DNA of 32,000 nt from an uncultured Clostridia bacterium (GCA_946409545.1 CAMJWT010000002.1:94491-126490); one strand, 5' to 3'; shown: positions 7,183-20,553, counted from the first letter of the stretch. Program-made: numbers and translations. The notes: generated by a model not told the origin, from the letters alone.

Positions 7183-7209
7183 ATGCAAACTGATGGGGGA
7201 ATGATTTTT

Positions 7210-9372
7210 ATGATGGATGAATTTAACATTATTAAACGCAAGAAAAAGAAAAATGCGTTTGCATCAACAGCGCTATTAGCAAGTATAGGAATTGCTGTCT
7301 TAGCTATATTGTTAATAGTACTTGTGATGGGAAGAAGTAGAACAACAAAAACTAGTACCGTTCAAACATATAGTGGTAATGGTTCTGATACTACTTGTGC
7401 TAATGCTTCTAAAGAAGAAAAGTTTACAAACAATCTTCGTACAATTAAAGAAGCAGCAGTAAGTTATTTCACAGTTGAAAGAATGCCAAAGAATGTTGGT
7501 GATTCAATTAAACTTACATTAAAAGAAATGCAAAAGAAAAAATTAGTATTAGATATCTATGATAGTACTGGTAAAAAATGTAGTACAGAAAATTCATACG
7601 TAGAAGTTACTAAAGAAGAAGACGAATACGTAATGAAGATTCACTTATCATGTGATGATATGGAAGACTACATTGTTATTCATATTGGATGCTATGATTT
7701 CTGTGATGGAAAAATTTGTGAAGACAAAGTAAGATATGAATACGAATACAAGAAAGAAGTTTCATGTACAATGTCTGATTGGTCTGATTGGGGCGAATGG
7801 AAGACAAAACGTGAAGCTACAAACAGCAATAAGAAAGAAGAAACTAAGACAGAAACTAAGACTCAAGAAGTTGTAGAAACAAAGGATGCTACACCAAGCC
7901 CAACAACATATAACTGTGATAAATATCCTGGTTATAAGTTAGAAGGTAAAGAATGTGTTAAGAGAACAACTATTGTTGATACTAAACCAGCAACACCAAG
8001 TGAATACTCTTATACATGTGAAGATTATCCTGGTTATACATTAGTTGGTAAAGTATGTGAAAAGAAGATCGTAACAGAAACTCGTTATGATGCAACACCA
8101 AACCCAACAACATATAATTGTGATAAATATCCTGGATACACACTAAGTGGTAAAAAATGTGTTAAGACTGTTACAACAACAGATACAATTGATGCTACAA
8201 AAGTTTATAGTTGTCCAAGTGGATATACATTAAAAGGTACAAAATGTACAAAAACAGTTACAACAACAGATACAATTGATGCTTCATTATCTTATAAATG
8301 TCCAAGTGGATATACATTAAGTGGAACAAAATGTAAGAAGACTACAACAGATACAATTGACGCTACAGTGTCTTACTCATGTCCAAGTGGATATACACTA
8401 AGTGGAACAAAATGTAAGAAGACAACAACATCAAGTGTTGACGCTACTCCAACATATGGAAGTAGACAAGTATCATATACATGTTATAAACAAGAATGTA
8501 CTACAGAAACAGTATTCTCTTGTGATAACACTGGTTGTGGAAATAAACCAGTAACAAGTTGTAAGAATGTTCCAAAAACATGTTATAAAACTGAACAATA
8601 TGTTACAGGATATACATGTCCAAGTGGATATACATTAAGTGGAACAAAATGTAATAAATCAACTACAAGTTCAATTGATGCAACTAAGAATTATAGTTGT
8701 CCAAGTGGATATACATTAGATGGTACAAAATGTAAAAAATCAACAACAAGTTCAATTGATGCAACAAAAGTATATAGTTGCCCAAGTGGATATACATTAG
8801 ATGGAACAAAGTGTAAGAAAACAACTTCTTATACAGAAACTATTGATGCTTCATTTAAATATAGTTGTCCAAATGGATACACATTAAGTGGATCTAAATG
8901 TTCTAAGACAACTACTACAACATATACTGAAGATGCAACAGCTAATCCAACAACATATAACTGTGATAAATATCCTGGATCAAGACTTGAAGGTAAAAAA
9001 TGTGTAGTTACAACAACTACTATTGATCGTAAAGATGCTAAGAAAGTACCAGGTGGATATGTTTGTCCAGATGGATATGTAAAAGAAGGATTAACTTGTA
9101 AAAAGACAACAACAACAGTTGATAGAAAACCTGCAGATCATGGAACAATTACTTATAGTTGTCCAGAAGGATATACATTAATTGGTAAAAAATGTACTAG
9201 AAAAGTAATGAAAGAAGTTAAAGTAACATATTATCGTTATGCTACTAGAACTTGTGATGGCGGAGAAGTATTAATTGAATGGAGTACTGATAATCATGAC
9301 GAATCATTATTAAATGATGGTTATAAATTAACAGGAAACAAGAGAGCCATTAATGAAGAATCAGGAAAATAA
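7210..9372 (+). CDS. Membrane-anchored, Thr/Cys-rich repeat protein with 13 two-cysteine hairpin units (Y-x-C-x2-4-G-Y-x-L-x-G-x-x-C)
   Basis: The track start 7183 lies directly after the -10 box. The GGGGGA SD at 7195-7200 favours ATG 7210 or 7213 (MMDEFNIIKRKKKK). A TM helix (ALLASIGIAVLAILLIVLVMG) is followed by 13 units such as YSCPSGYTLSGTKCKKTTT and YNCDKYPGYTLSGKKCVKT, separated by T-rich spacers ending in IDAT. Confidence 0.8.
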   Translation: MMDEFNIIKRKKKKNAFASTALLASIGIAVLAILLIVLVMGRSRTTKTSTVQTYSGNGSDTTCANASKEEKFTNNLRTIKEAAVSYFTVERMPKNVGDSIKLTLKEMQKKKLVLDIYDSTGKKCSTENSYVEVTKEEDEYVMKIHLSCDDMEDYIVIHIGCYDFCDGKICEDKVRYEYEYKKEVSCTMSDWSDWGEWKTKREATNSNKKEETKTETKTQEVVETKDATPSPTTYNCDKYPGYKLEGKECVKRTTIVDTKPATPSEYSYTCEDYPGYTLVGKVCEKKIVTETRYDATPNPTTYNCDKYPGYTLSGKKCVKTVTTTDTIDATKVYSCPSGYTLKGTKCTKTVTTTDTIDASLSYKCPSGYTLSGTKCKKTTTDTIDATVSYSCPSGYTLSGTKCKKTTTSSVDATPTYGSRQVSYTCYKQECTTETVFSCDNTGCGNKPVTSCKNVPKTCYKTEQYVTGYTCPSGYTLSGTKCNKSTTSSIDATKNYSCPSGYTLDGTKCKKSTTSSIDATKVYSCPSGYTLDGTKCKKTTSYTETIDASFKYSCPNGYTLSGSKCSKTTTTTYTEDATANPTTYNCDKYPGSRLEGKKCVVTTTTIDRKDAKKVPGGYVCPDGYVKEGLTCKKTTTTVDRKPADHGTITYSCPEGYTLIGKKCTRKVMKEVKVTYYRYATRTCDGGEVLIEWSTDNHDESLLNDGYKLTGNKRAINEESGK
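7909..9205 (+). repeat. Coding tandem-repeat array (13 Cys-hairpin units of about 26-33 aa)
   Basis: The DNA block tgtccaagtggatatacattaagtggaacaaaatgtaagaag recurs with minor variants near 8212, 8299, 8380, 8618, 8698, 8777 and 8866. A second variant, tgtgataaatatcctgg..., occurs near 7916, 8019, 8119 and 8962. Confidence 0.85.
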
Positions 9373-12291: not shown

Positions 12292-12292
12292 T

Positions 12293-12322
12293 AAATATCC
12301 ACTTTATTGTGGATATTTTTTT
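12293..12322 (+). terminator. Intrinsic terminator
   Basis: AAATATCCAC-tttatt-GTGGATATTT hairpin followed by a T-run. Confidence 0.8.
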
Positions 12323-12358
12323 ATGTCTTTATGATATACTTATAAAGTAGGAGTATAT

Positions 12359-12613
12359 ATGAAAAGGTTATTAATAGGAACTAGTATTTTTCTTTTTATA
12401 GTAATTGTTTCTTTATCTTTTGTTTTATATCGAAGATATCAAGATAATAAAATAATTAATCAAGAAATAAAAGAAGATCGAGAAGAGAAAAATAAAAAAA
12501 GAGAAGAAAAACAAAGAGAATTAGATAATCTTATTGAACAAAATAAAGATAAAATTGAAAGGTATCAAAAAATAGAGAAATGGAACGAAGAAATTACCTC
12601 TTACTTAGAATAA
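12359..12613 (+). CDS. Small membrane-anchored coiled-coil protein, unknown function
   Basis: AGGAG SD. One TM helix (LLIGTSIFLFIVIVSLSFVLY) followed by a charged K/E-rich helix. Confidence 0.55.
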   Translation: MKRLLIGTSIFLFIVIVSLSFVLYRRYQDNKIINQEIKEDREEKNKKREEKQRELDNLIEQNKDKIERYQKIEKWNEEITSYLE

Positions 12614-13419
12614 TTGTTTCTATTGAATTATCTATCCTTTTCTATATTATATTGTTTATATCTAAAACTCCTATAAAAAAATTAGATATTCAAGAAGAAA
12701 ATTATAAAGATATTGAAGAAAAAATAAATTTCTATAAAGATATTGATAATCAAATCAATTTAAAATATGAAGAATATACAGATAATATTGCAAAGTTAGA
12801 ACAAAAAGTTAAGAATAAAGAAACTAAAGTTAAAATCGCTTATTTAACTTTTGATGATGGACCATATGATTTAACTGATAAGTTTCTTGATGTTTTAAAA
12901 AAGAATGATGTTCGAGCAACATTTTTTACATTAGGAAAAAGAGATTATATTAAAACCTATAAAAGAATTCTAAATGAAGATCATGTACTTGCAAATCATA
13001 CATATTATCATAATATATGGAAAGGATTATATAAAAGTACTAATAACTTTATATCACAAGTAAAGCAATTAGAAAAATTGATATATGATAATACAGGTTA
13101 TAAAACAACCTTAGTAAGATTCCCTGGTGGAGTAAATACAGCAGGAAAATTAAAAAATAGTATTATTAACGAGTTACATAAAAATGGATATAAATATGTT
13201 GAATGGACATGTATAACAGGTGATGGTTCTGATGAACAATTAAGACAACATGACACCTGGTATTGGTATAATAAAACCTGCAAAGGGGATATTATGGTAA
13301 TATTGATGCATGATTATAATTATTCAACGTATACAATTCTTGATAAAGTAATAAAAGATTTAAGAAGTAAAGGATATATTCTTTTACCGTTAACAAATAA
13401 GAGTATGATGGCTAAATAA
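12580..13419 (+). CDS. Polysaccharide deacetylase (NodB homology domain) with N-terminal TM anchor
   Basis: NodB motifs IAYLTFDDGP, ANHTYYH and LVRFPGG. The start is uncertain: ATG 12580 overlaps the upstream ORF by 34 nt and has a weak SD. Confidence 0.8.
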   Translation: MERRNYLLLRIIVSIELSILFYIILFISKTPIKKLDIQEENYKDIEEKINFYKDIDNQINLKYEEYTDNIAKLEQKVKNKETKVKIAYLTFDDGPYDLTDKFLDVLKKNDVRATFFTLGKRDYIKTYKRILNEDHVLANHTYYHNIWKGLYKSTNNFISQVKQLEKLIYDNTGYKTTLVRFPGGVNTAGKLKNSIINELHKNGYKYVEWTCITGDGSDEQLRQHDTWYWYNKTCKGDIMVILMHDYNYSTYTILDKVIKDLRSKGYILLPLTNKSMMAK

Positions 13420-13446
13420 AAGATCTACAAAAAGTAGATCTTTTTT
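13417..13446. terminator. Bidirectional terminator between convergent genes
   Basis: AAAGATCTAC-aaaaa-GTAGATCTTT hairpin with an A-run on one side and a T-run on the other. Confidence 0.8.
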
Positions 13447-14413
13447 AATTCCATTTTTTTACAATATAACGACATAATGTTTTAGGATTATTTGATGTAT
13501 ATTTTGATATTGGGCAATAATCTTGTTCAGGAACGGGATTAATGTATACATCGCATCCTTCTTGTATCTCAAATATGTTTTGTTCATCTATTTCACTTGC
13601 AATTGGAATATTAGTCCCATATATACCATTTTGTCTTAAGAATACTAACCAAGCTCGATTATTTTCTGGATGCATACAATACCATCTTGTATCATCTTTT
13701 ATACCAAGTGATGGATAAATAACAGGACAACTAATATGGTCTTTAGGAAATTGTTTATAAATATTGTCTAATTGAAGATGAACATTTTTTATTTCTTCTT
13801 CTGTTAAATGTTGATGTGTTGGAAGACACCCTTTTTCAACAGATCCAATATGGAAACTAAAATCTTGAATATCCATTTGTGAAAAATATTTAACAATAGA
13901 ATATGCTTCTAGATAATTACATGACCATAATGTTGGTTGTATTTTTATTTTGTAACCAGAATCTTGTGCCCATTTAATACCATCGATAGCTTTATCAAAA
14001 GGATAGTTAACGCCTTTCAGTAAATTCATTTTCATTTTATCAACGGAATCAATACTAAATGATACATAATCAACATTTTCTGGTTTAATATCTTTAAGTA
14101 GAGTCTTTAATGTTTTAATACCACCAATACCACTTGTTGAATAGCAAACATTACTACCATTTTCAATAGCTTTTAGAGATAATTTATTACAATATTTAGT
14201 ATCAACTGCGGGATCAGGGTTTCCTAAAATATAAGTTTGTTTAAGGTTAGGGAAGATTCTAAATAACTCATCTATTTGTTCATTAGTACCTTGGTATGTT
14301 GACATACTTCCTTTTTGTGAACATATAGGACATTTGCATAGACAAGACTCACTACCTTTTTCACCGGTATAGACAGTTATACTATTTATTTCATTTGTTT
14401 TAAATAAACCCAT
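13445..14413 (-). CDS. Radical SAM enzyme of unassigned subfamily
   Basis: CxxxCxxC cluster CLCKCPIC (nt 14321-14344). A GNPDP element sits where the GGEP SAM-binding motif is expected. There are additional C-terminal cysteines. The track start is TTG 14431, but the GGGGGA SD (14423-14418) favours ATG 14413, and ATG 14425 is also possible. Confidence 0.7.
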   Translation of the reverse strand: MGLFKTNEINSITVYTGEKGSESCLCKCPICSQKGSMSTYQGTNEQIDELFRIFPNLKQTYILGNPDPAVDTKYCNKLSLKAIENGSNVCYSTSGIGGIKTLKTLLKDIKPENVDYVSFSIDSVDKMKMNLLKGVNYPFDKAIDGIKWAQDSGYKIKIQPTLWSCNYLEAYSIVKYFSQMDIQDFSFHIGSVEKGCLPTHQHLTEEEIKNVHLQLDNIYKQFPKDHISCPVIYPSLGIKDDTRWYCMHPENNRAWLVFLRQNGIYGTNIPIASEIDEQNIFEIQEGCDVYINPVPEQDYCPISKYTSNNPKTLCRYIVKKWN

Positions 14414-14436
14414 AACATCCCCCATAAACAAGGCAT

Positions 14437-14465
14437 ATTATATCATTTATATATATAATTAACAA
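14437..14465 (-). promoter_or_regulatory. Promoter for the radical SAM gene (TTGTTA - 17 nt - TATAAT on the - strand)
   Basis: The - strand reads TTGTTA (14465-14460), a 17-nt spacer, then TATAAT (14442-14437). This sits directly after the HTH gene stop. Confidence 0.55.
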
Positions 14466-14480
14466 TACATTATTTTACAT

Positions 14481-14978
14481 TTAATAATCAAATAGTTTAC
14501 ATTTATATTCACTTAATAAATCATTGATTGAAATAATATCATATATTTTGTTAATAAAACAAAATCTTATTATTAAATCATAGTAGTTATTCTTAGGAAG
14601 AGAATATGATGCACTTCTAAGTAAACTATCTATTTCATCCTCATTTAGTTCAAGTGATAATCCTAAAAGAATAACGGTTTCTTTACTTGGATGATAGTTT
14701 TTATCACTTCTTATTTTTGAAAATAAACGTCTATCAATATGAACTTTATTATATACATCACTATCAATAAGATTTCTTTCATCAATATATTTAAATAACA
14801 ATGTTTGAAAATCATTTAAATCTTTATTTTCATTTATATAATTATCGATATTAGGAGCTGCTGATTCACACATCATATCTTCATTAAATGAAGCTTTACT
14901 TCTTAATGAAAAATTACCAAATAATCTTTTTTCAACTTCTAAATTTTCTTTTATATATTTTCTTAATTCATCTTTCAT
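14481..14978 (-). CDS. Putative DNA-binding protein with C-terminal XRE-like helix-turn-helix module
   Basis: The segment DSDVYNKVHIDRRLFSKIRSDKNYHPSKETVILLGLSLELNEDEIDSLLRSASYSL matches a helix-turn-helix family I recognise as common in Firmicutes. The gene is divergent from the vWA gene. Confidence 0.6.
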   Translation of the reverse strand: MKDELRKYIKENLEVEKRLFGNFSLRSKASFNEDMMCESAAPNIDNYINENKDLNDFQTLLFKYIDERNLIDSDVYNKVHIDRRLFSKIRSDKNYHPSKETVILLGLSLELNEDEIDSLLRSASYSLPKNNYYDLIIRFCFINKIYDIISINDLLSEYKCKLFDY

Positions 14979-15075
14979 AATAACCTCAAACTAATTATAT
15001 CAAATGTCGCTTTAAAAGAGACCAATTAATCATTATAAAGTAATAAAATGTAGTCATGAAAGGAAGAGATGAAAA

Positions 15076-15690
15076 ATGATGAAAAAAAGAAATTTAATGC
15101 ATGTTGTATTCCTACTTGATAGAAGTGGAAGTATGTCAGGATCTGAATCTGATACAATAGGAGGTTTTAATAGTTACATTAAAAAGAATAAAAAGAAAGA
15201 TTATTTAGTAACAACCATTCTTTTTGATGATAAGTATGAAAAACTATATACTGCAAAACATATTAGTGATGTAGCCGAATTAACTAACAAAGAATATTAT
15301 GTTAGAGGTTGTACAGCTTTATTAGATGCTCTAGGTAAAACAATTAATTTTATGGATCATGAAACTAAAGATAAAGTATTATTTGTAATAACAACTGATG
15401 GTTATGAAAATGCATCACATGAGTTTACTAAAGAAAAGATTAAAGAAATGATAAAAGGTCATAAAAACTATGAATTCATGTATATTGGAGCTGATATTGA
15501 TTCTTATAGTGAAGCAAGTAATATTGGTATTAGTCGAAGTAATGTCGCAAACTATAGAAAGAGCAAAAAAGGTATTAATAGAATGTTTGATGCTGTTAGT
15601 ATGGCATGTGAAGAATATTCATGTGGTTCATCAATAGGTTCTAAATGGAAAGAATCTCTTGATGAATATGTTTCAAATAACGAAGAATAG
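15076..15690 (+). CDS. Stand-alone cytoplasmic von Willebrand factor A (vWA) domain protein, TerY-like in size and architecture
   Basis: Intact MIDAS: VVFLLDRSGSMSG (DxSxS, nt 15118-15132), the Thr in GCTALLDA, and ITTDGYEN. No signal peptide or TM segment. Confidence 0.8.
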   Translation: MMKKRNLMHVVFLLDRSGSMSGSESDTIGGFNSYIKKNKKKDYLVTTILFDDKYEKLYTAKHISDVAELTNKEYYVRGCTALLDALGKTINFMDHETKDKVLFVITTDGYENASHEFTKEKIKEMIKGHKNYEFMYIGADIDSYSEASNIGISRSNVANYRKSKKGINRMFDAVSMACEEYSCGSSIGSKWKESLDEYVSNNEE

Positions 15691-15712
15691 ATACGTCAAC
15701 GTATCTTTTTTT
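15689..15712 (+). terminator. Intrinsic terminator isolating the vWA gene
   Basis: AGATACG-tcaa-CGTATCT hairpin followed by T7. Confidence 0.75.
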
Positions 15713-15725
15713 CATATCCATTAGA

Positions 15726-15754
15726 TTGAAATTGCAATAGTGAGATGATATATT
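15726..15754 (+). promoter_or_regulatory. Promoter of the AAA+ operon (TTGAAA - 17 nt - TATATT)
   Basis: TTGAAA at 15726-15731, a 17-nt spacer, and TATATT at 15749-15754. A second TATAAT lies just downstream. Confidence 0.5.
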
Positions 15755-15788
15755 ATAAGTATAATAGTAATAATAGGTGGTGTTTTTT

Positions 15789-17840
15789 ATGAGAGAAAAA
15801 GAATTAATAAAGACTATTAGAGATGATCCTTTTATTGATGCTGATGAATTAATTGATATTATTAATGATCCAGGTGTAACGCCAAATGTATTAAAAGTAA
15901 TTATCGATGAAAATAATACTGCTATGGTTCGTTATGCTATTTTGAAATGCAATGTTCTTGATGAAGATACCCTTATATATTTGATTAAAAAAACGAGAAG
16001 TGATGCGAGTGAAAGAATGATTCGCGCTATTATTGAATGTGAAAAAATGACACCACTTGCTTTAAGATACGCATGCAATATGGTAAATTATAGTATTTGG
16101 AGTTGGAGTGATGTTATAATGGGATCACCTGGTTTTGATGAATCAGTTGCTCTTGAATTAATTAACTTATTTGTCAAACATGAACAGCCATCACGATGTT
16201 CTGAATTATTTATGCAATTAGTAGATGATCCAGTATGCACTAAAAATATTTTATTAGAAATTATTAATAAAACGAATTCTACTAGGGTAATAAATAAAAT
16301 CTTGGATAGTCCTTTAGCTGATTTAAGTATTAAAGTTGAATTAGTTCTAAAGAAAAAACTTTTATCATCTGAGGATATTGATAATATTTTTAGTACACCT
16401 GGTATTACCTCAGAAATTATATGTAGATTAGTTAGAAAACACAATACAGAAGAAGTTATTAGAAGAGCTTTAACTTTTCCAGGTATAGATAATGAACTAT
16501 ATAAAACGATTGTTAATGCTATTTTCTTTAAAGATGATCCTAGTGATGAAGCAATAATTGATGAATTGCTTACTAGAGATATATCTGATGATGTTCTTTC
16601 GACAATTATTAAAGGGGCAAAAAAAGTCGATATAATTCGCAAAGTAGCAGAACATCCAAATGCTTCTCTTCGAAATGTTCAAGTAATTTTGTTTGATGTT
16701 GAACAATGGAAGGAACCTTATCGCAAACAATTAATAGAAATTGCTAAAAAATTAAAAAATACGATAATTGCTAAAACATATAAAGTAGAAAAAGAAGAAA
16801 ATGTTACCGAAATGCTTCGAGCTAATGTTGAAGATGGATTAACAACAATGTTATGGGGACCATCTGGTGTAGGTAAAAGTAGTCGTGTCTTTGAAGTAGA
16901 CCCAACAGCAACCTTATTAATTTTGAAAAATGGTATGTTATCTGAAGAAGTAATTGGAGGTAGAGAACCAAATGGTCAACCAGGGCAAGTATATCCACCA
17001 CATTGGTATCAAGTTTTATGTGAGAAATGTCGAAAAGAACCTGATAGACAGCATATTTTATTCATTGATGAATTTACAAATGTTACAGATACTATTAAAA
17101 ATCTAGTCTGGGAAATAATTGGTAATAGAATGGTAAATGGAAATGAAGAATGGCCATTACCAGAAAATTGTTCAATTGTTGTTGCGGGTAATAGACCAGA
17201 AGAATCATCTGCTGTTCGAATGGATAGTACTGGTGGCGTTATGCCAGCACCTCTTCATAATAGAATGGATTCCATGATTGAAATTCAATTTGATATTGAT
17301 GAGTGGCAAAAATGGGCTTTAGAAACTGATTATCGAACAGGACATTTACATATTCATCCTATTGTATATTCATTCTGTGTTGCTAATGCGGATAAAGTTA
17401 TGTTTACACAGTATGATTCAGAAGATGTAACAGCGCCATTCTTAACACCAAGAAAATGGGAAACTTTATCAAGAGCTATTTATAAAGCTCAAGATAGAAG
17501 TGGTGAAAATACATTAATAAGTGAAGCCAGAATAAAGAGTATTATTGGTGATAATGATATTAGTAATGCTTTCATTGAACATTATTATCGAATTCCAATT
17601 GATATGAAGAAAATTGAGAATGGTGAATATAAAGAATATGATTTCCCAACTGTTGAAGATAAGCTTTATGCCTTGGGAATTGTAATTGCTAATTATAATG
17701 GTGATGAAATCGCTATTGAAGACTTTATAAGAGAATGCTTAGGTGATGAATACTATGCAATATACGTTAATATGAAAAGAAATAGGCAATCAGTTTTGGA
17801 AACAAGCCAAAATACATCAACAACGGGTAAAACAATATAG
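15789..17840 (+). CDS. Fusion protein: N-terminal alpha-helical repeat (LRV/HEAT-like) region plus C-terminal MoxR/AAA_5-like AAA+ ATPase
   Basis: The AGGTGG SD favours ATG 15789 over track start 15777. Walker A is LWGPSGVGKS (16857-16880) and Walker B is ILFIDEF (17055-17075). Sensor-1 is VVAGNRP and an Arg-finger-like region is APLHNRMDSMIEI. The N-terminal 330 aa or so contain repeated units of roughly 30 aa, such as DPGVTPNVLKVII...VRYAIL, SPGFDESVALELI, TPGITSEIICRLV, FPGIDNELYKTIV and HPNASLRNVQVIL. Confidence 0.8.
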   Translation: MREKELIKTIRDDPFIDADELIDIINDPGVTPNVLKVIIDENNTAMVRYAILKCNVLDEDTLIYLIKKTRSDASERMIRAIIECEKMTPLALRYACNMVNYSIWSWSDVIMGSPGFDESVALELINLFVKHEQPSRCSELFMQLVDDPVCTKNILLEIINKTNSTRVINKILDSPLADLSIKVELVLKKKLLSSEDIDNIFSTPGITSEIICRLVRKHNTEEVIRRALTFPGIDNELYKTIVNAIFFKDDPSDEAIIDELLTRDISDDVLSTIIKGAKKVDIIRKVAEHPNASLRNVQVILFDVEQWKEPYRKQLIEIAKKLKNTIIAKTYKVEKEENVTEMLRANVEDGLTTMLWGPSGVGKSSRVFEVDPTATLLILKNGMLSEEVIGGREPNGQPGQVYPPHWYQVLCEKCRKEPDRQHILFIDEFTNVTDTIKNLVWEIIGNRMVNGNEEWPLPENCSIVVAGNRPEESSAVRMDSTGGVMPAPLHNRMDSMIEIQFDIDEWQKWALETDYRTGHLHIHPIVYSFCVANADKVMFTQYDSEDVTAPFLTPRKWETLSRAIYKAQDRSGENTLISEARIKSIIGDNDISNAFIEHYYRIPIDMKKIENGEYKEYDFPTVEDKLYALGIVIANYNGDEIAIEDFIRECLGDEYYAIYVNMKRNRQSVLETSQNTSTTGKTI

Positions 17841-17854
17841 GAGGAGATGATAAT

Positions 17855-18250
17855 ATGGAAAAAGATAATGGAATGAATTCAATAAAGGAAGCTTTAGTTG
17901 ATTATTCTGATCCTATTTATATTGTTGGTGATATGAAAAAGAGTATATCACCATCAGTTGTTACAATTTCTGCAACAATGCCTAAAGAAGAATTAATAAT
18001 TAAAAATAATGAATATCCAATTTGGTATTTAAAAGTATTAAGAAATTCATATAAAGGTAATAGTATTTTATGTATAAGAGATTTTGACAAGATATCTATT
18101 GAGGAACAAAAATTATTTTTAGATATTATTAGTAAGCAATATTTCTCTAGTGAAAAATTGCCACCTAATTTAAAGATAATTATTCAATCAGAAACTCCAT
18201 GTCAATTGTTACCAGAAATCGAAGAAGTAATTCAATACTATAAGGTTTAG
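17855..18250 (+). CDS. Small protein resembling a degenerate AAA+ core, paralogous to the preceding ATPase domain
   Basis: GGAGGAG SD. The product is collinear with the upstream ATPase core: YPIWYLKVL...ILCIRDFDKISIEEQKLFLDIIS...LPPNLKIIIQSETP versus PPHWYQVL...ILFIDEFTNVTDTIKNLVWEII...LPENCSIVVAGNRP. The P-loop position reads IVGDMKKS instead of GPSGVGKS. Confidence 0.6.
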   Translation: MEKDNGMNSIKEALVDYSDPIYIVGDMKKSISPSVVTISATMPKEELIIKNNEYPIWYLKVLRNSYKGNSILCIRDFDKISIEEQKLFLDIISKQYFSSEKLPPNLKIIIQSETPCQLLPEIEEVIQYYKV

Positions 18251-18260
18251 AGGTATTATT

Positions 18261-19892
18261 ATGACTGTTGAAGATTTAGAAAGAGTAAAACGATCAGTTA
18301 TAAGGCGTTATCCTATTTCAGCAGGCTTAGCTCTACAAGGTGTAAATATTGAACTGTCAAAAACGATTGATACAGCAGCTGTTGTTGGTAAAAAAAATGA
18401 TCAAGGAGTAATTGAAGTTGATAAACTTTTAGTAAACCCTGATTTTATGGATCGATTATCGTTTAGTGAAAGAGTATTTGTACTGGCTCATGAAGCCTTA
18501 CATATTGCTTTAAAACACTTTGCAAGATCTAAAGAAAAACCAGAAGCGGACGCTGAAAGAGAATATGAAGAGTATTGTGAAAGAGAACAAGATGAAGCGA
18601 AGCGACAAGCTAAAAAAGCATATCTTCATAGTCATTATCAAAGATTATGGAATATTGCCACTGATGCCTGTATTAATGCTTTCTTAAAAAGAGATGGTTT
18701 TACTTTTCCAGAGAATGTTCCTAATCCTAAAACAGGAAAGCCAATGCAATTTATTGATATGAAAGATGGTCTTGTTCGAAGTGCTGAAAAAATATATGAT
18801 GCCCTAGTTAAAAAAGAAAAAAAAGAAAAAGAAGAAAAAGAAAAGGAAAAGCAAAAACAAAAAGATTTAGATAAAGATCAACAAGAAAATAATAATCAAC
18901 AACCTAGTGATCCAGATCAAAATAATCAAGAACAACAAAATAATAATGATAATCAACAACAAAATCATGAATCTGATGAAGATGATACATCATTAGGGGA
19001 ATTACCAGATCCAGATGATTATGATGGATTTGATTCTCATGAACATTGGACTAATGATGATGTTAAAAGTGATTCAAAAGATAGTGGAGAGACGAAAAAA
19101 CAAGATGCATCCCAAGAAAAATCCCAATCTAAAGCTAAACCAGAACCTGTTGATGAAGAAGATATCTTAGAGAAAGAACTAGAAAAAAGAGAAAAGAAGG
19201 ATACTTCTGAAGAAGAAAAGAAAAATCCCTTTTCTAGTCTTCGTTCAAAATTAGGTATTCCTGATGTTAAAGGTTTTAAACCTGTTTTATCTTGGAAAAG
19301 AGTTCTTGCTGGTACCCAAGAAAGAATTGTTGAAAAATGGAGTACCAGAAGATCATCAAGATTTAATCCTAATCCAAGAGTTGAAGAAATGACTGAAGAA
19401 ACTGGTGTTTCAGTTGAAGTAATATTAGATGTTTCAGGTTCAATATCTGTTGAATTATTAAGAGGATTTTTATTACAATTATATCCAATATTTGAAACAT
19501 TATATGGAACGGGAAATGTTAGTTTAAAAGTTGGAACCTTCTCTACAAAATTCTCAGGATTTCAAGTTATAAAAAATAGAGAAGATATTGCTAGTTATGA
19601 TCCAGAAATTGGTGGTTGGACAAATTATGAAGTTGCAGCAACATCATTTTCACAAAATAGAGGGGATAGAGCTGTAAAGATTGTCTTCACTGATGGAGTT
19701 CTTGATGGAAAGCCAGAACATAAACAACGAACAAGAGTATCGGATATTATTTGGATTGTTTTTGGGGATAGAATGAATTTTACTCCACTTGGAGGAAGAA
19801 TTATTCGTGTTAGTGAAAAAGAATATAATGACATGATTGCTAGTGGACTAGTATATCAAAGTGATGATGGATATCATACTAGTCGCATATAA
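18261..19892 (+). CDS. HExxH metallopeptidase-like domain (DUF2201_N-like) + disordered acidic/QN-rich linker + C-terminal vWA-like domain (DUF2201-like)
   Basis: VLAHEALHIALKH (HEALH at nt 18489-18503) followed by WNIATDACINAF. A low-complexity linker spans roughly aa 183-330. The C-terminal MIDAS is VILDVSGSIS (nt 19428-19442) plus VFTDGVLDG. Confidence 0.75.
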   Translation: MTVEDLERVKRSVIRRYPISAGLALQGVNIELSKTIDTAAVVGKKNDQGVIEVDKLLVNPDFMDRLSFSERVFVLAHEALHIALKHFARSKEKPEADAEREYEEYCEREQDEAKRQAKKAYLHSHYQRLWNIATDACINAFLKRDGFTFPENVPNPKTGKPMQFIDMKDGLVRSAEKIYDALVKKEKKEKEEKEKEKQKQKDLDKDQQENNNQQPSDPDQNNQEQQNNNDNQQQNHESDEDDTSLGELPDPDDYDGFDSHEHWTNDDVKSDSKDSGETKKQDASQEKSQSKAKPEPVDEEDILEKELEKREKKDTSEEEKKNPFSSLRSKLGIPDVKGFKPVLSWKRVLAGTQERIVEKWSTRRSSRFNPNPRVEEMTEETGVSVEVILDVSGSISVELLRGFLLQLYPIFETLYGTGNVSLKVGTFSTKFSGFQVIKNREDIASYDPEIGGWTNYEVAATSFSQNRGDRAVKIVFTDGVLDGKPEHKQRTRVSDIIWIVFGDRMNFTPLGGRIIRVSEKEYNDMIASGLVYQSDDGYHTSRI

Positions 19893-19912
19893 TATAATGA
19901 AAGGTGAAATAA

Positions 19913-20503
19913 ATGAAAAAAATAGATGAGTTACATTGTCCCAATTGTGGAGCTCCTGTTACTACGGAAATATGTCCTTATTGCAAAGTAAGAACTGGTC
20001 TTGATACCAAAGATGCAGATATGGAATATCCTGTAATTGATTGTAAAGAAGCCATTTTAAATTTTTGGAATACAATATTTCCTGGTATTTTTGCTTTTGG
20101 ATTTGGTTTATCAGGAATAACAAGTTATTTTATGTTAAATAGTTTTGAAAAAAACTTTGATAGTTTTATGTCAGGTTTTAAATTTTTTCCAATTCCTTTT
20201 ATAACAATTGGTTTAATAGCATTCATCATTGTTATTGTTCATTTAAGACGTTACTTCTTAGTTAAATCTTTTGGTAAAGAAATTAAAGCTACGGTCTACG
20301 GATATATGGATGATAATTTGTATATTAATGGAAACCCTGCCCAAATTGTAAAATTACTTGTTGATACTAATGAAGGTAAAAGATTCATTTTATATCAATT
20401 AAAAGATATCAAGAAACCTTATAAAGTTAATAGTACAATCGATTTAGTTGTATATAAGAATTATTTCTTGATTTCTAAAAAAAATAAGAATTATTTTAAT
20501 TAG
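19913..20503 (+). CDS. Zn-ribbon membrane protein (N-terminal CxxC...CxxC, 2-3 TM helices, C-terminal beta-rich DUF3592-like module)
   Basis: CPNCGAPVTTEICPYC (nt 19937-19984). Hydrophobic segments are IFPGIFAFGFGLSGITSYFML and FFPIPFITIGLIAFIIVIVHL. The C-terminal KATVYGYMDD...PAQIVKLLVDT...RFILYQL resembles DUF3592. Confidence 0.65.
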   Translation: MKKIDELHCPNCGAPVTTEICPYCKVRTGLDTKDADMEYPVIDCKEAILNFWNTIFPGIFAFGFGLSGITSYFMLNSFEKNFDSFMSGFKFFPIPFITIGLIAFIIVIVHLRRYFLVKSFGKEIKATVYGYMDDNLYINGNPAQIVKLLVDTNEGKRFILYQLKDIKKPYKVNSTIDLVVYKNYFLISKKNKNYFN

Positions 20504-20527
20504 ATTGAGTTTATCTCAATCTTTTTT
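20502..20527 (+). terminator. Intrinsic terminator ending the AAA+ operon
   Basis: AGATTGAG-tttat-CTCAATCT hairpin followed by T5. Confidence 0.8.
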
Positions 20528-20553
20528 ATGATACAATATGTTTGGTGATTTTG

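Follow-up and report, generated by a model that had tools for sequence, protein, structure and literature searches.

A conserved three-gene MoxR-class AAA+/vWA unit with a variable ATPase N-terminus in gut and rumen bacteria: a putative sensor-switch-protease system

The window analyzed here is a 32,000-nt stretch of DNA from an uncultured Clostridia bacterium (GCA_946409545.1, CAMJWT010000002.1:94491-126490). This study concerns three adjacent genes within it, which encode a MoxR-class AAA+ ATPase with an N-terminal repeat domain, a small AAA+-like protein, and a protein that joins a metallopeptidase-like domain to a von Willebrand factor A (vWA) domain, hereafter called MPTase-vWA. An earlier note on this DNA had treated them as part of a five- or seven-gene cassette with the logic of a sensor, an NTPase switch, a protease and a membrane effector. 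Comparison across loci showed that only the ATPase, the small protein and MPTase-vWA co-occur, and the locus is best explained by a cytoplasmic MoxR-class AAA+/vWA machine encoded by these three genes rather than by a five- to seven-gene cassette. The genes and domains of this trio, which is about 4.1 kb long, are as follows (MIDAS, metal ion-dependent adhesion site).

15777-17840, plus strand: repeat::MoxR-class AAA+ ATPase, 687 aa
15777-16766, plus strand: ATPase residues 1-330, tandem alpha-helical LRV-like repeats
16767-17840, plus strand: ATPase residues 331-687, AAA+ module and C-terminal helical region
17855-18250, plus strand: small AAA+ core paralogue, predicted to be dead, 131 aa
18261-19892, plus strand: MPTase-vWA, zincin HExxH::acidic linker::vWA, of DUF2201_N/DUF2201 type, 543 aa
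MPTase-vWA residues ~1-185: zincin-like metallopeptidase domain
MPTase-vWA residues ~186-350: acidic disordered linker of ~150 residues
MPTase-vWA residues ~351-530: vWA domain with a complete MIDAS

The ATPase matches Pfam AAA_5 slightly below the cut-off of 22 (6e-4, 20.3 bits), a cut-off that is passed by the family members P0041 (33.9 bits) and P0039/P0040. It also matches phrog_1297, labelled 'ATPase' (5e-30), and in tblastn searches is about 25% identical to phage proteins annotated as MoxR ATPases. Across 24 homologues, the Walker A (GPSGVGKS), Walker B (FIDE) and sensor-1 (AGN) motifs are invariant, R496 is conserved at 90% or more, and R559 is conserved too. The protein therefore carries the Walker A and Walker B motifs, the sensor-1 asparagine and the arginine finger by which the MoxR class was recognized, and the gene for its adjoining vWA/MIDAS partner, MPTase-vWA, comes next in 33 loci. 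The N-terminal 330 residues are repetitive, with off-diagonal hhalign self-matches at E values of 7e-18, 9e-17 and 3e-7; the LRV_2 threshold is reached in one homologue, P0035 (27.4 bits).

The 131-aa product of the middle gene aligns in register with the ATPase over Walker A, PxWY, Walker B, LPxN and sensor 1 (hhalign E 2e-4). At the Walker A site, the alignment retains a conserved beta-strand and glycine without the lysine; Walker B reads D-F instead of D-E, and sensor 1 reads N/S. The AlphaFold2 (AF2) model has a predicted local distance difference test score (pLDDT) of 84.5 and a predicted template modelling score (pTM) of 0.79. Its best Foldseek matches are to NorQ in NorQ-NorD complexes (9qh9, 9qh7, 9qhd), followed by other AAA+ cores; among viral models, the best are full-length phage MoxR-like ATPases, including phage G gp566. 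The Foldseek TMq for NorQ and the phage ATPases reaches up to 0.76. Because of the hhalign register, the lost residues, and the AF2 model with its Foldseek matches, the small protein is predicted to be a lid-less, catalytically dead paralogue of the ATPase motor. An exhaustive profile search recovered its family as 143 clusters among 1.84e9 representatives, nearly all of them stand-alone proteins of 120-140 aa, and the gene lies between those for the ATPase and MPTase-vWA in 29 loci. An equivalent was sought in phage MoxR loci, and none was found there.

MPTase-vWA matches DUF2201_N (PF13203) well above its cut-off of 23.2 (1.5e-18, 67.9 bits), which places it in that family, and phrog_1314 at 4e-44. 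Its match to DUF2201 (PF09967) is 5e-5 and 23.7 bits against a cut-off of 26.4; PF09967 is found in most homologues. It was counted as a DUF2201 VWA-like protein with a MIDAS on the basis of the DxSxS...T...D pattern, the Foldseek results, and the PF09967 matches of the homologues. In 33 homologues, H77, E78, H81, H86, R89, W130, N131 and D135 are invariant, as are the MIDAS residues D390, S392, S394 and D478, with T454 conserved at 97%. Both end domains of the AF2 model have a pLDDT of about 85-90 and the linker falls below 50; Foldseek matched the C-terminal domain to vWA and integrin I structures. The three architectures described in the earlier note, namely a helical-repeat::AAA+ fusion with intact Walker A/B, a small degenerate AAA+ paralogue and an HExxH::linker::vWA protein, are thus supported by the internal repeats and invariant motifs, by the hhalign, AF2 and Foldseek results, and by the two DUF2201 matches, respectively.

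A search with the ATPase returned 42 proteins among 5.8e9, all from metagenomes or metagenome-assembled genomes (MAGs). On the contigs of these matches, a long ATPase gene is followed by genes for a ~131-aa protein and for a DUF2201_N/DUF2201 protein, in that order. Scanning 185,579 species, each represented by one genome, yielded 48 loci; in most of them the three genes are adjacent and co-directional, as seen in a hidden Markov model search of their open reading frames (ORFs), and in a few they stand in another order. About 30 loci have the trio in the same order. The trio was found in gut and rumen MAGs labelled Bacilli, Clostridia, Lachnospiraceae, Christensenella, Alphaproteobacteria and Prevotella; it is rare, and its distribution over the bacterial phyla of these habitats is patchy. 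Purifying selection acts on each of its genes, with ratios of nonsynonymous to synonymous substitution (dN/dS) of 0.02-0.41. All-against-all clustering of the locus ORFs revealed no further conserved neighbor, and the surroundings vary (pnp...smc; scpAB; near ToxN; near a type IIG restriction enzyme; pyrF...rpiA/sepF/clpPX). The earlier note had proposed a check of whether its five or seven genes travel together in variable defense islands: three genes do travel together; the five or seven do not, and no defense islands were seen among the neighboring ORFs scanned.

Two of these surroundings touch chromosome segregation genes. The trio adjoins smc, downstream, in L001:14755-17706 and scpA-scpB, upstream, in L004:8468-9764. 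A link of the trio to chromosome segregation was considered and set aside: this adjacency is absent from the other loci, and is therefore treated as coincidence.

The element that varies among trio loci is the N-terminus of the ATPase. Between the window and its nearest distinct relative, L003, the ATPase modules are 90-94% identical and the N-terminal repeats 34-72%; the dN/dS of the N-terminus is 0.30 versus 0.07-0.13 for the module. Clustering of the N-termini of the loci gave three multi-member groups, with L014 standing alone: LRV-like repeats in the clade of the window, a faintly DUF6273-like domain (45 ORFs), and a 37-aa repeat array. The ATPase P0041 has WG beta-repeats at its N-terminus. 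At least four unrelated types of N-terminal domain are therefore fused to one ATPase module, and some family members have no N-terminal domain at all. BLASTP homology between the ATPases of the window and L061 begins exactly at residue 334. Variation of the same kind is found within genomes, where the modules of ATPase paralogues are 93-99% identical and their N-termini 36-44%. Many genomes have extra ATPase paralogues, in tandem or dispersed, that lack partner genes of their own.

Such multi-paralogue loci, tandem or dispersed, were seen in the gut MAG loci L015, L019, L025, L028, L034, L037 and L045, and also in L030-L033, L036, L039, L040, L043, L046, L050, L051 and L055. The motors in these MAGs are up to 99% identical and the N-terminal domains 27-44%, as if several sensors shared one protease partner. 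A subgroup represented by L035:913-3684 and L038:248-2734 has ATPases with two AAA+ modules in one polypeptide, preceded by the 37-aa repeat array (AHGQVIIDSGDANYNYxFARDIKGADIK).

In three relatives, the N-terminus is also the target of a diversity-generating retroelement (DGR), which comprises a template repeat (TR), a reverse transcriptase (RT) and, in two cases, an Avd-like gene.

L061:3524-7591: DGR with Avd-like gene, TR and RT, and the ATPase
L026:4395-9059: DGR with Avd-like gene, TR and RT, and the ATPase
L144:3636-7591: DGR with TR and RT, and the ATPase

In each of them, the DGR precedes the ATPase gene, and the variable repeat (VR) lies inside the DUF6273-like N-terminal domain. The DGR of L061 has a bAvd-like gene, a 126-nt TR and an RT of the RVT_1 family; its VR falls in ATPase codons ~47-89, and 11 of the 12 mismatches between TR and VR are at TR adenines. 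The Avd and RT of L026 are homologous to those of L061, and 20 of its 24 TR/VR mismatches are at adenines, one adenine change producing a TAA stop within the VR that splits the reading frame. In L144, which also has an RT, the TR/VR pair spans 83 nt, and about 11 of 14 mismatches, read from the sequences, are at adenines. Targeting of the ATPase by DGRs in relatives is the most striking element of this family. Because the N-terminus is the only diversified element and a DGR target in relatives, and because DGR targets are ligand-binding domains, it is most plausibly the recognition module. The sensor-NTPase-protease part of the logic in the earlier note gains support from these observations, since the ATPase N-terminus is fast-evolving, exchanged among loci and mutagenized by DGRs in three relatives.

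The remaining genes and signals around the trio are listed below.

13445-14431, minus strand: radical-SAM enzyme (rSAM), 328 aa, Radical_SAM 2e-9
14481-14978, minus strand: 165-aa gene, labelled helix-turn-helix ('HTH') in the earlier note
15076-15690, plus strand: stand-alone vWA protein (vWA204), 204 aa, VWA_2 4.8e-6
15726-15754, plus strand: sigma-70-like -35/-10 match, TTGAAA-17-TATATT with TG, a possible operon promoter on weak evidence
19913-20503, plus strand: Zn-ribbon protein with two predicted transmembrane (TM) segments, 196 aa, weak DZR match (0.004)
20502-20522, plus strand: terminator-like hairpin and T-run closing the transcription unit, from the hairpin scan

The block is flanked by typA, a deacetylase, rsmI and GH25. 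All ORFs described in the earlier note are present, and the four co-directional genes are separated by 14, 10 and 20 nt, which agrees with its tight operon of 10-20 nt gaps. Its stand-alone vWA protein is likewise confirmed: vWA204 matches VWA_2 and phrog_7371 (2e-48), a DxSxS motif can be read in its sequence, and a terminator-like hairpin follows its gene at 15689. NCBIfam gave weak matches of vWA204 to chelatase-type families. The radical-SAM gene holds as well, on its Radical_SAM match; the best NCBIfam similarities of its product are weak and to NirJ/AhbC-type SPASM enzymes. Other readings held in part. The Zn-ribbon multi-TM protein has two predicted TM segments but only the weak DZR match, and no DUF3592 match in Pfam. 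The terminator at 20502 was recovered by the scan, and inspection of the sequence shows a hairpin at 13417-13446, which the scan missed. The promoter match at 15726 exists, but such matches are no commoner in the region than in shuffled sequence (72 found versus 73 expected). The 165-aa protein has no Pfam match, and its 'HTH' label could not be verified.

The site occupied by these genes was compared by fetching homologous contigs from metagenomes through RsmI and locating the window proteins in them. The interval between typA and rsmI (window 12292-20541; compared L062-L094) is a variable insertion site. The trio is present there only in L062 (98-99% identical) and in a contig with 92% RsmI identity; the contigs at 85, 83, 81, 80 and 76% RsmI identity lack it. 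Instead of the trio, L065-L070 carry acyltransferase(s), a deacetylase, glycosyltransferases, a methyltransferase, a GNAT protein, a 1,835-aa adhesin and a HAD hydrolase. In the more distant relatives L080, L091 and L094, typA ends 53-100 bp before rsmI. The trio is thus an accessory insertion. No integrase and no tRNA gene was seen in the interval in the compared contigs. The earlier note had concluded from the lack of an integrase that this is not an obvious mobile island: an integrase is indeed absent, but the conclusion misleads, the interval being a variable insertion site.

The neighbors of the trio behave as passengers at this site. By tblastn, vWA204, the 165-aa protein and the rSAM protein occur in no trio locus beyond the nearest relative. 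The Zn-ribbon protein is absent even from that relative (L003/L063) and was found only in L062. In L003, its slot (14078-14692), between flanks that are 92% identical, holds an unrelated single-TM, Cys-rich membrane protein of 204 aa. The gene downstream of MPTase-vWA differs in every other locus, and this slot resembles a local gene replacement at one position. The Zn-ribbon gene is a lineage-specific passenger, probably co-transcribed with the trio; as a conserved membrane effector it was rejected, being replaced in the next relative and found nowhere else. The membrane effector of the earlier note thus falls away, no membrane effector being conserved among the loci. In L066, which lacks the trio, the genes for vWA204 and the 165-aa protein still occur together. 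The best phage matches of both proteins (36-41% identity) come from two shared gut phage records, PV036457.1 and MT838259.1, where the homologues lie less than ~1 kb apart. On these grounds, the two genes form a separate module. vWA204 alone has relatives in 217 phage records, among them Streptomyces, Microbacterium and jumbo phages. The rSAM gene stands directly beside rsmI in L065:8956-9972, a relative without vWA204, the trio or the 165-aa gene, and is therefore another independent passenger.

The trio was compared with known MoxR-vWA systems. The earlier note had stated that no characterized system matches, and that statement stands: NCBIfam has nothing specific for the trio proteins, a sequence search of the PDB gave no structural match for any of them, a literature search found no paper on this gene set and no functional study, and PADLOC, as described below, recognized no known system. 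Its analogy with the TerY-P anti-phage system fails because no kinase or phosphatase domain was found by Pfam or NCBIfam in the ORFs between 12580 and 21408. Pfam, phages, and plasmids such as pSYSA already provide examples of the two-gene core, in which a MoxR ATPase is paired with a zincin-vWA protein of DUF2201 type. For the MoxR and metallopeptidase-vWA pair of jumbo and rV5-like phages, a role in virion assembly has been suggested (Iyer et al. 2021, PMC7824862). The trio resembles that pair in having a MoxR-class ATPase beside a DUF2201_N/DUF2201 zincin-vWA gene. The phage and pSYSA versions differ in that they are only ~25% identical and lack both the N-terminal sensor-like domain and the small, presumably dead AAA+ gene. 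The phage pair lies in phage genomes, whereas the trio of the window is chromosomal, with typA, deacetylase, rsmI and GH25 flanks. In Synechocystis PCC 6803, plasmid pSYSA (L060; 26352-28630) carries a plain MoxR family ATPase paired with a 'VWA-like domain-containing protein', located amid toxin-antitoxin genes (PIN, HepT, DUF1778/GNAT) on a CRISPR-rich plasmid. The two proteins match profiles built from the trio family at E values of 1e-17 and 2e-9.

The concept of a ternary MoxR-vWA system is also known. Four types of predicted ternary conflict system have been described, with VMAP, iSTAND, FtsH and beta-propeller components (Kaur, Burroughs, Iyer & Aravind 2020, PMC7159879), and in some the sensors are diversified by DGRs (PMC10907252). 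The trio is like them in several ways: its synteny shows a conserved third component that accompanies the MoxR AAA+ ATPase and the vWA protein; the vWA component bears a peptidase; a hypervariable, presumed ligand-sensing module without enzymatic activity is present; and DGR diversification occurs in some members. The differences are no less clear. The third component of the trio is a 130-aa, predicted lid-less and dead MoxR core, not a VMAP, iSTAND, FtsH or beta-propeller protein, and Pfam found no VMAP or bpMoxR match in the trio proteins. The trio carries its variable module at the ATPase N-terminus; in the described systems that module belongs to the third component or the vWA protein. The zincin of the trio is constant and N-terminal, whereas their peptidases are among a set of variable effectors C-terminal to vWA. 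Ternary conflict systems are enriched in multicellular prokaryotes (cyanobacteria and actinobacteria); the trio hosts are gut and rumen MAGs, presumably of unicellular anaerobes. The trio lacks the defining features of all four described classes.

A third group for comparison is NorQ-NorD, CbbQ-CbbO and CoxD-CoxE, in which a MoxR hexamer works with a MIDAS-vWA partner and a flexible linker is remodelled. For NorQ-NorD, it is established that a finger of the vWA domain reaches into the AAA+ pore and that the linker of NorD is remodelled by the motor (PMC13036017). NorQ is also the best structural match of the small paralogue. These systems differ from the trio in that they serve metal insertion into, or reactivation of, one fixed enzyme encoded nearby, and in that they lack a peptidase domain, a variable N-terminal domain and a dead AAA+ subunit. 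Chelatases offer a further parallel. Mg-chelatase BchI/BchD and cobaltochelatase CobS/CobT combine an active AAA+ motor with an inactive AAA+, an acidic linker and a C-terminal MIDAS vWA domain, and BchD joins the dead AAA+ module, linker and vWA domain in one polypeptide. In the trio, the presumably dead AAA+ is a separate 131-aa protein instead, and a zincin takes its place N-terminal to the linker and vWA domain. No tetrapyrrole genes lie near the trio.

The trio may be read as a variable, ligand-sensing MoxR-vWA sensor-switch-protease system with a putative role in conflict or immunity, and this reading is given about an even chance of being right. By analogy, invader sensing, as conflict or immunity, would be the most likely biological role. 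In the proposed mechanism, the N-terminal domain of the ATPase would bind a variable protein ligand, and this binding would gate the ATPase ring. The ring may then dock the vWA domain of MPTase-vWA, as NorQ engages NorD, and pull on the long acidic linker; the pull could switch on or position the zincin, leading to cleavage of a target. The presumed dead AAA+ subunit might act as an adaptor or as a brake on ring assembly or vWA docking. Its predicted core, which keeps the pore-facing insert without a nucleotide site or lid, could close off or break up the ring, or keep the vWA finger in place before activation. A conflict role is favored by the accessory, patchy, cross-phylum occurrence of the trio in a variable site and by the exchangeable, hypermutated N-termini on conserved motors. 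It is proposed more tentatively, at somewhat less than an even chance, that the trio is a fifth MoxR-vWA ternary immune-like class, in unicellular gut and rumen anaerobes, with antigen recognition on the motor, a dead AAA+ regulator and a zincin output. If so, it would be a somatically or evolutionarily diversifying intracellular receptor-protease.

Several results weigh against a sensor-protease role in conflict. PADLOC-DB v2 contains no known system for the trio proteins; the sole match, of DolB to the ATPase (E 0.0028), covers the P-loop only. Pfam and PADLOC scans of 150 neighboring ORFs from about 25 loci returned mostly housekeeping proteins (ABC transporters, tRNA synthetases, GidA, sigma factors), and the trio is therefore not embedded in defense islands; scattered restriction-modification, RT or helicase matches occur among these ORFs, and the PADLOC matches are generic ABC or P-loop hits. 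The alternative cargo between typA and rsmI is likewise cell-surface and miscellaneous, not defense. No toxic effector is evident beyond the peptidase, and the zincin assignment itself draws on Pfam and motif conservation, the Foldseek search of the full-length model having been swamped by vWA matches. The dN/dS of the N-terminus, 0.30, is not above 1 and thus gives no sign of positive selection. Finally, the window has no RT, Avd homologue or TR/VR repeat. Because its repeats are unrelated to the DUF6273-like domain targeted by DGRs, the sensor role of its N-terminus is transferred from relatives.

The serious rival, although an unlikely one, is a client-specific chaperone and protease: a maturation system like NorQ-NorD, CbbQ-CbbO, CoxD-CoxE or RavA-ViaA, in which one cellular protein complex would be remodelled and proteolytically processed and the N-terminal repeats would dock the client. 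Pairing of MoxR and vWA proteins is the hallmark of such systems (PMC13036017, PMC9976466), and the mostly housekeeping flanks, the purifying selection on all three genes and the lack of a known defense signature in PADLOC fit it. However, about 50 loci show no conserved client gene beside the trio, whose distribution is extremely patchy and crosses phyla, and which is missing from close relatives at the same site; in addition, ATPase paralogues within a genome have near-identical motors and divergent N-termini, and an N-terminus targeted by DGRs is hard to reconcile with one fixed client. A functional unit as large as the cassette of the earlier note, with the membrane protein as terminal effector, is very improbable. 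Between typA and rsmI the genes are indeed near one another, the Zn-ribbon gene starts 20 nt after that of MPTase-vWA and ahead of the terminator, and the block is whole in L062 and mostly kept in L003/L063. Even there, however, an unrelated gene replaces the Zn-ribbon gene. No other trio locus has vWA204, the 165-aa gene or rSAM; the first two are found in L066, which lacks the trio, and as a pair in two gut phage records, rSAM stands alone by rsmI in L065, and vWA204 has its own terminator. The seven-gene cassette is thus largely refuted by tblastn and clustering across loci. Least probable of all is a phage-derived module, that is, a prophage remnant or domesticated kin of the MoxR/metallopeptidase-vWA pair described by Iyer et al. 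2021 (PMC7824862) in jumbo and rV5-like phages. The phrog_1297 and phrog_1314 matches, the tblastn matches in 118 phage records, the matches of phiTE_060 and phage G gp576 to the MPTase-vWA profile, the phage-type vWA204 and its partner gene next door, and one trio-bearing IMG/VR contig (L144) speak for it. The identity to phage proteins is nevertheless only about 25%, the phage versions lack the N-terminal domain and the small paralogue, and no virion, integrase or lysis genes were seen beside the trio among the loci examined. The 2.9 million viral contigs of IMG/VR are nearly empty of the family, with one remote relative of the ATPase, one of MPTase-vWA and none of the small protein, and L144 is flanked by an ABC ATPase and the DGR rather than virion genes. 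A prophage origin was rejected on the nearly empty viral-contig scans and the lack of phage genes among the neighbors.

Few AAA+ machines are as poorly understood as MoxR-vWA pairs, and no function has been assigned to the zincin-vWA partner of DUF2201 type. The trio cleanly separates a presumed ligand-binding domain, a motor, a regulatory pseudo-subunit and a protease output. In its relatives, diversification affects one part only, the N-terminus of the ATPase, through exchange of domains, expansion of paralogues and mutagenesis by DGRs; this confinement makes the sensor-switch-protease hypothesis for MoxR-vWA conflict systems directly testable. If that hypothesis is true, DGR-driven intracellular sensing would extend from multicellular bacteria to gut anaerobes; if the trio is a client chaperone instead, it would represent a new protease-coupled MoxR function.

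Elsewhere in the window, diverged direct DNA repeats of 74-161 nt with 76-85% identity lie at 8089-9005, inside an ORF (7183-9372) that encodes a 729-aa protein with EGF-like, Cys-rich repeats. Upstream of this ORF lie genes for Big_2 surface proteins, a U32 peptidase and a GDSL lipase.

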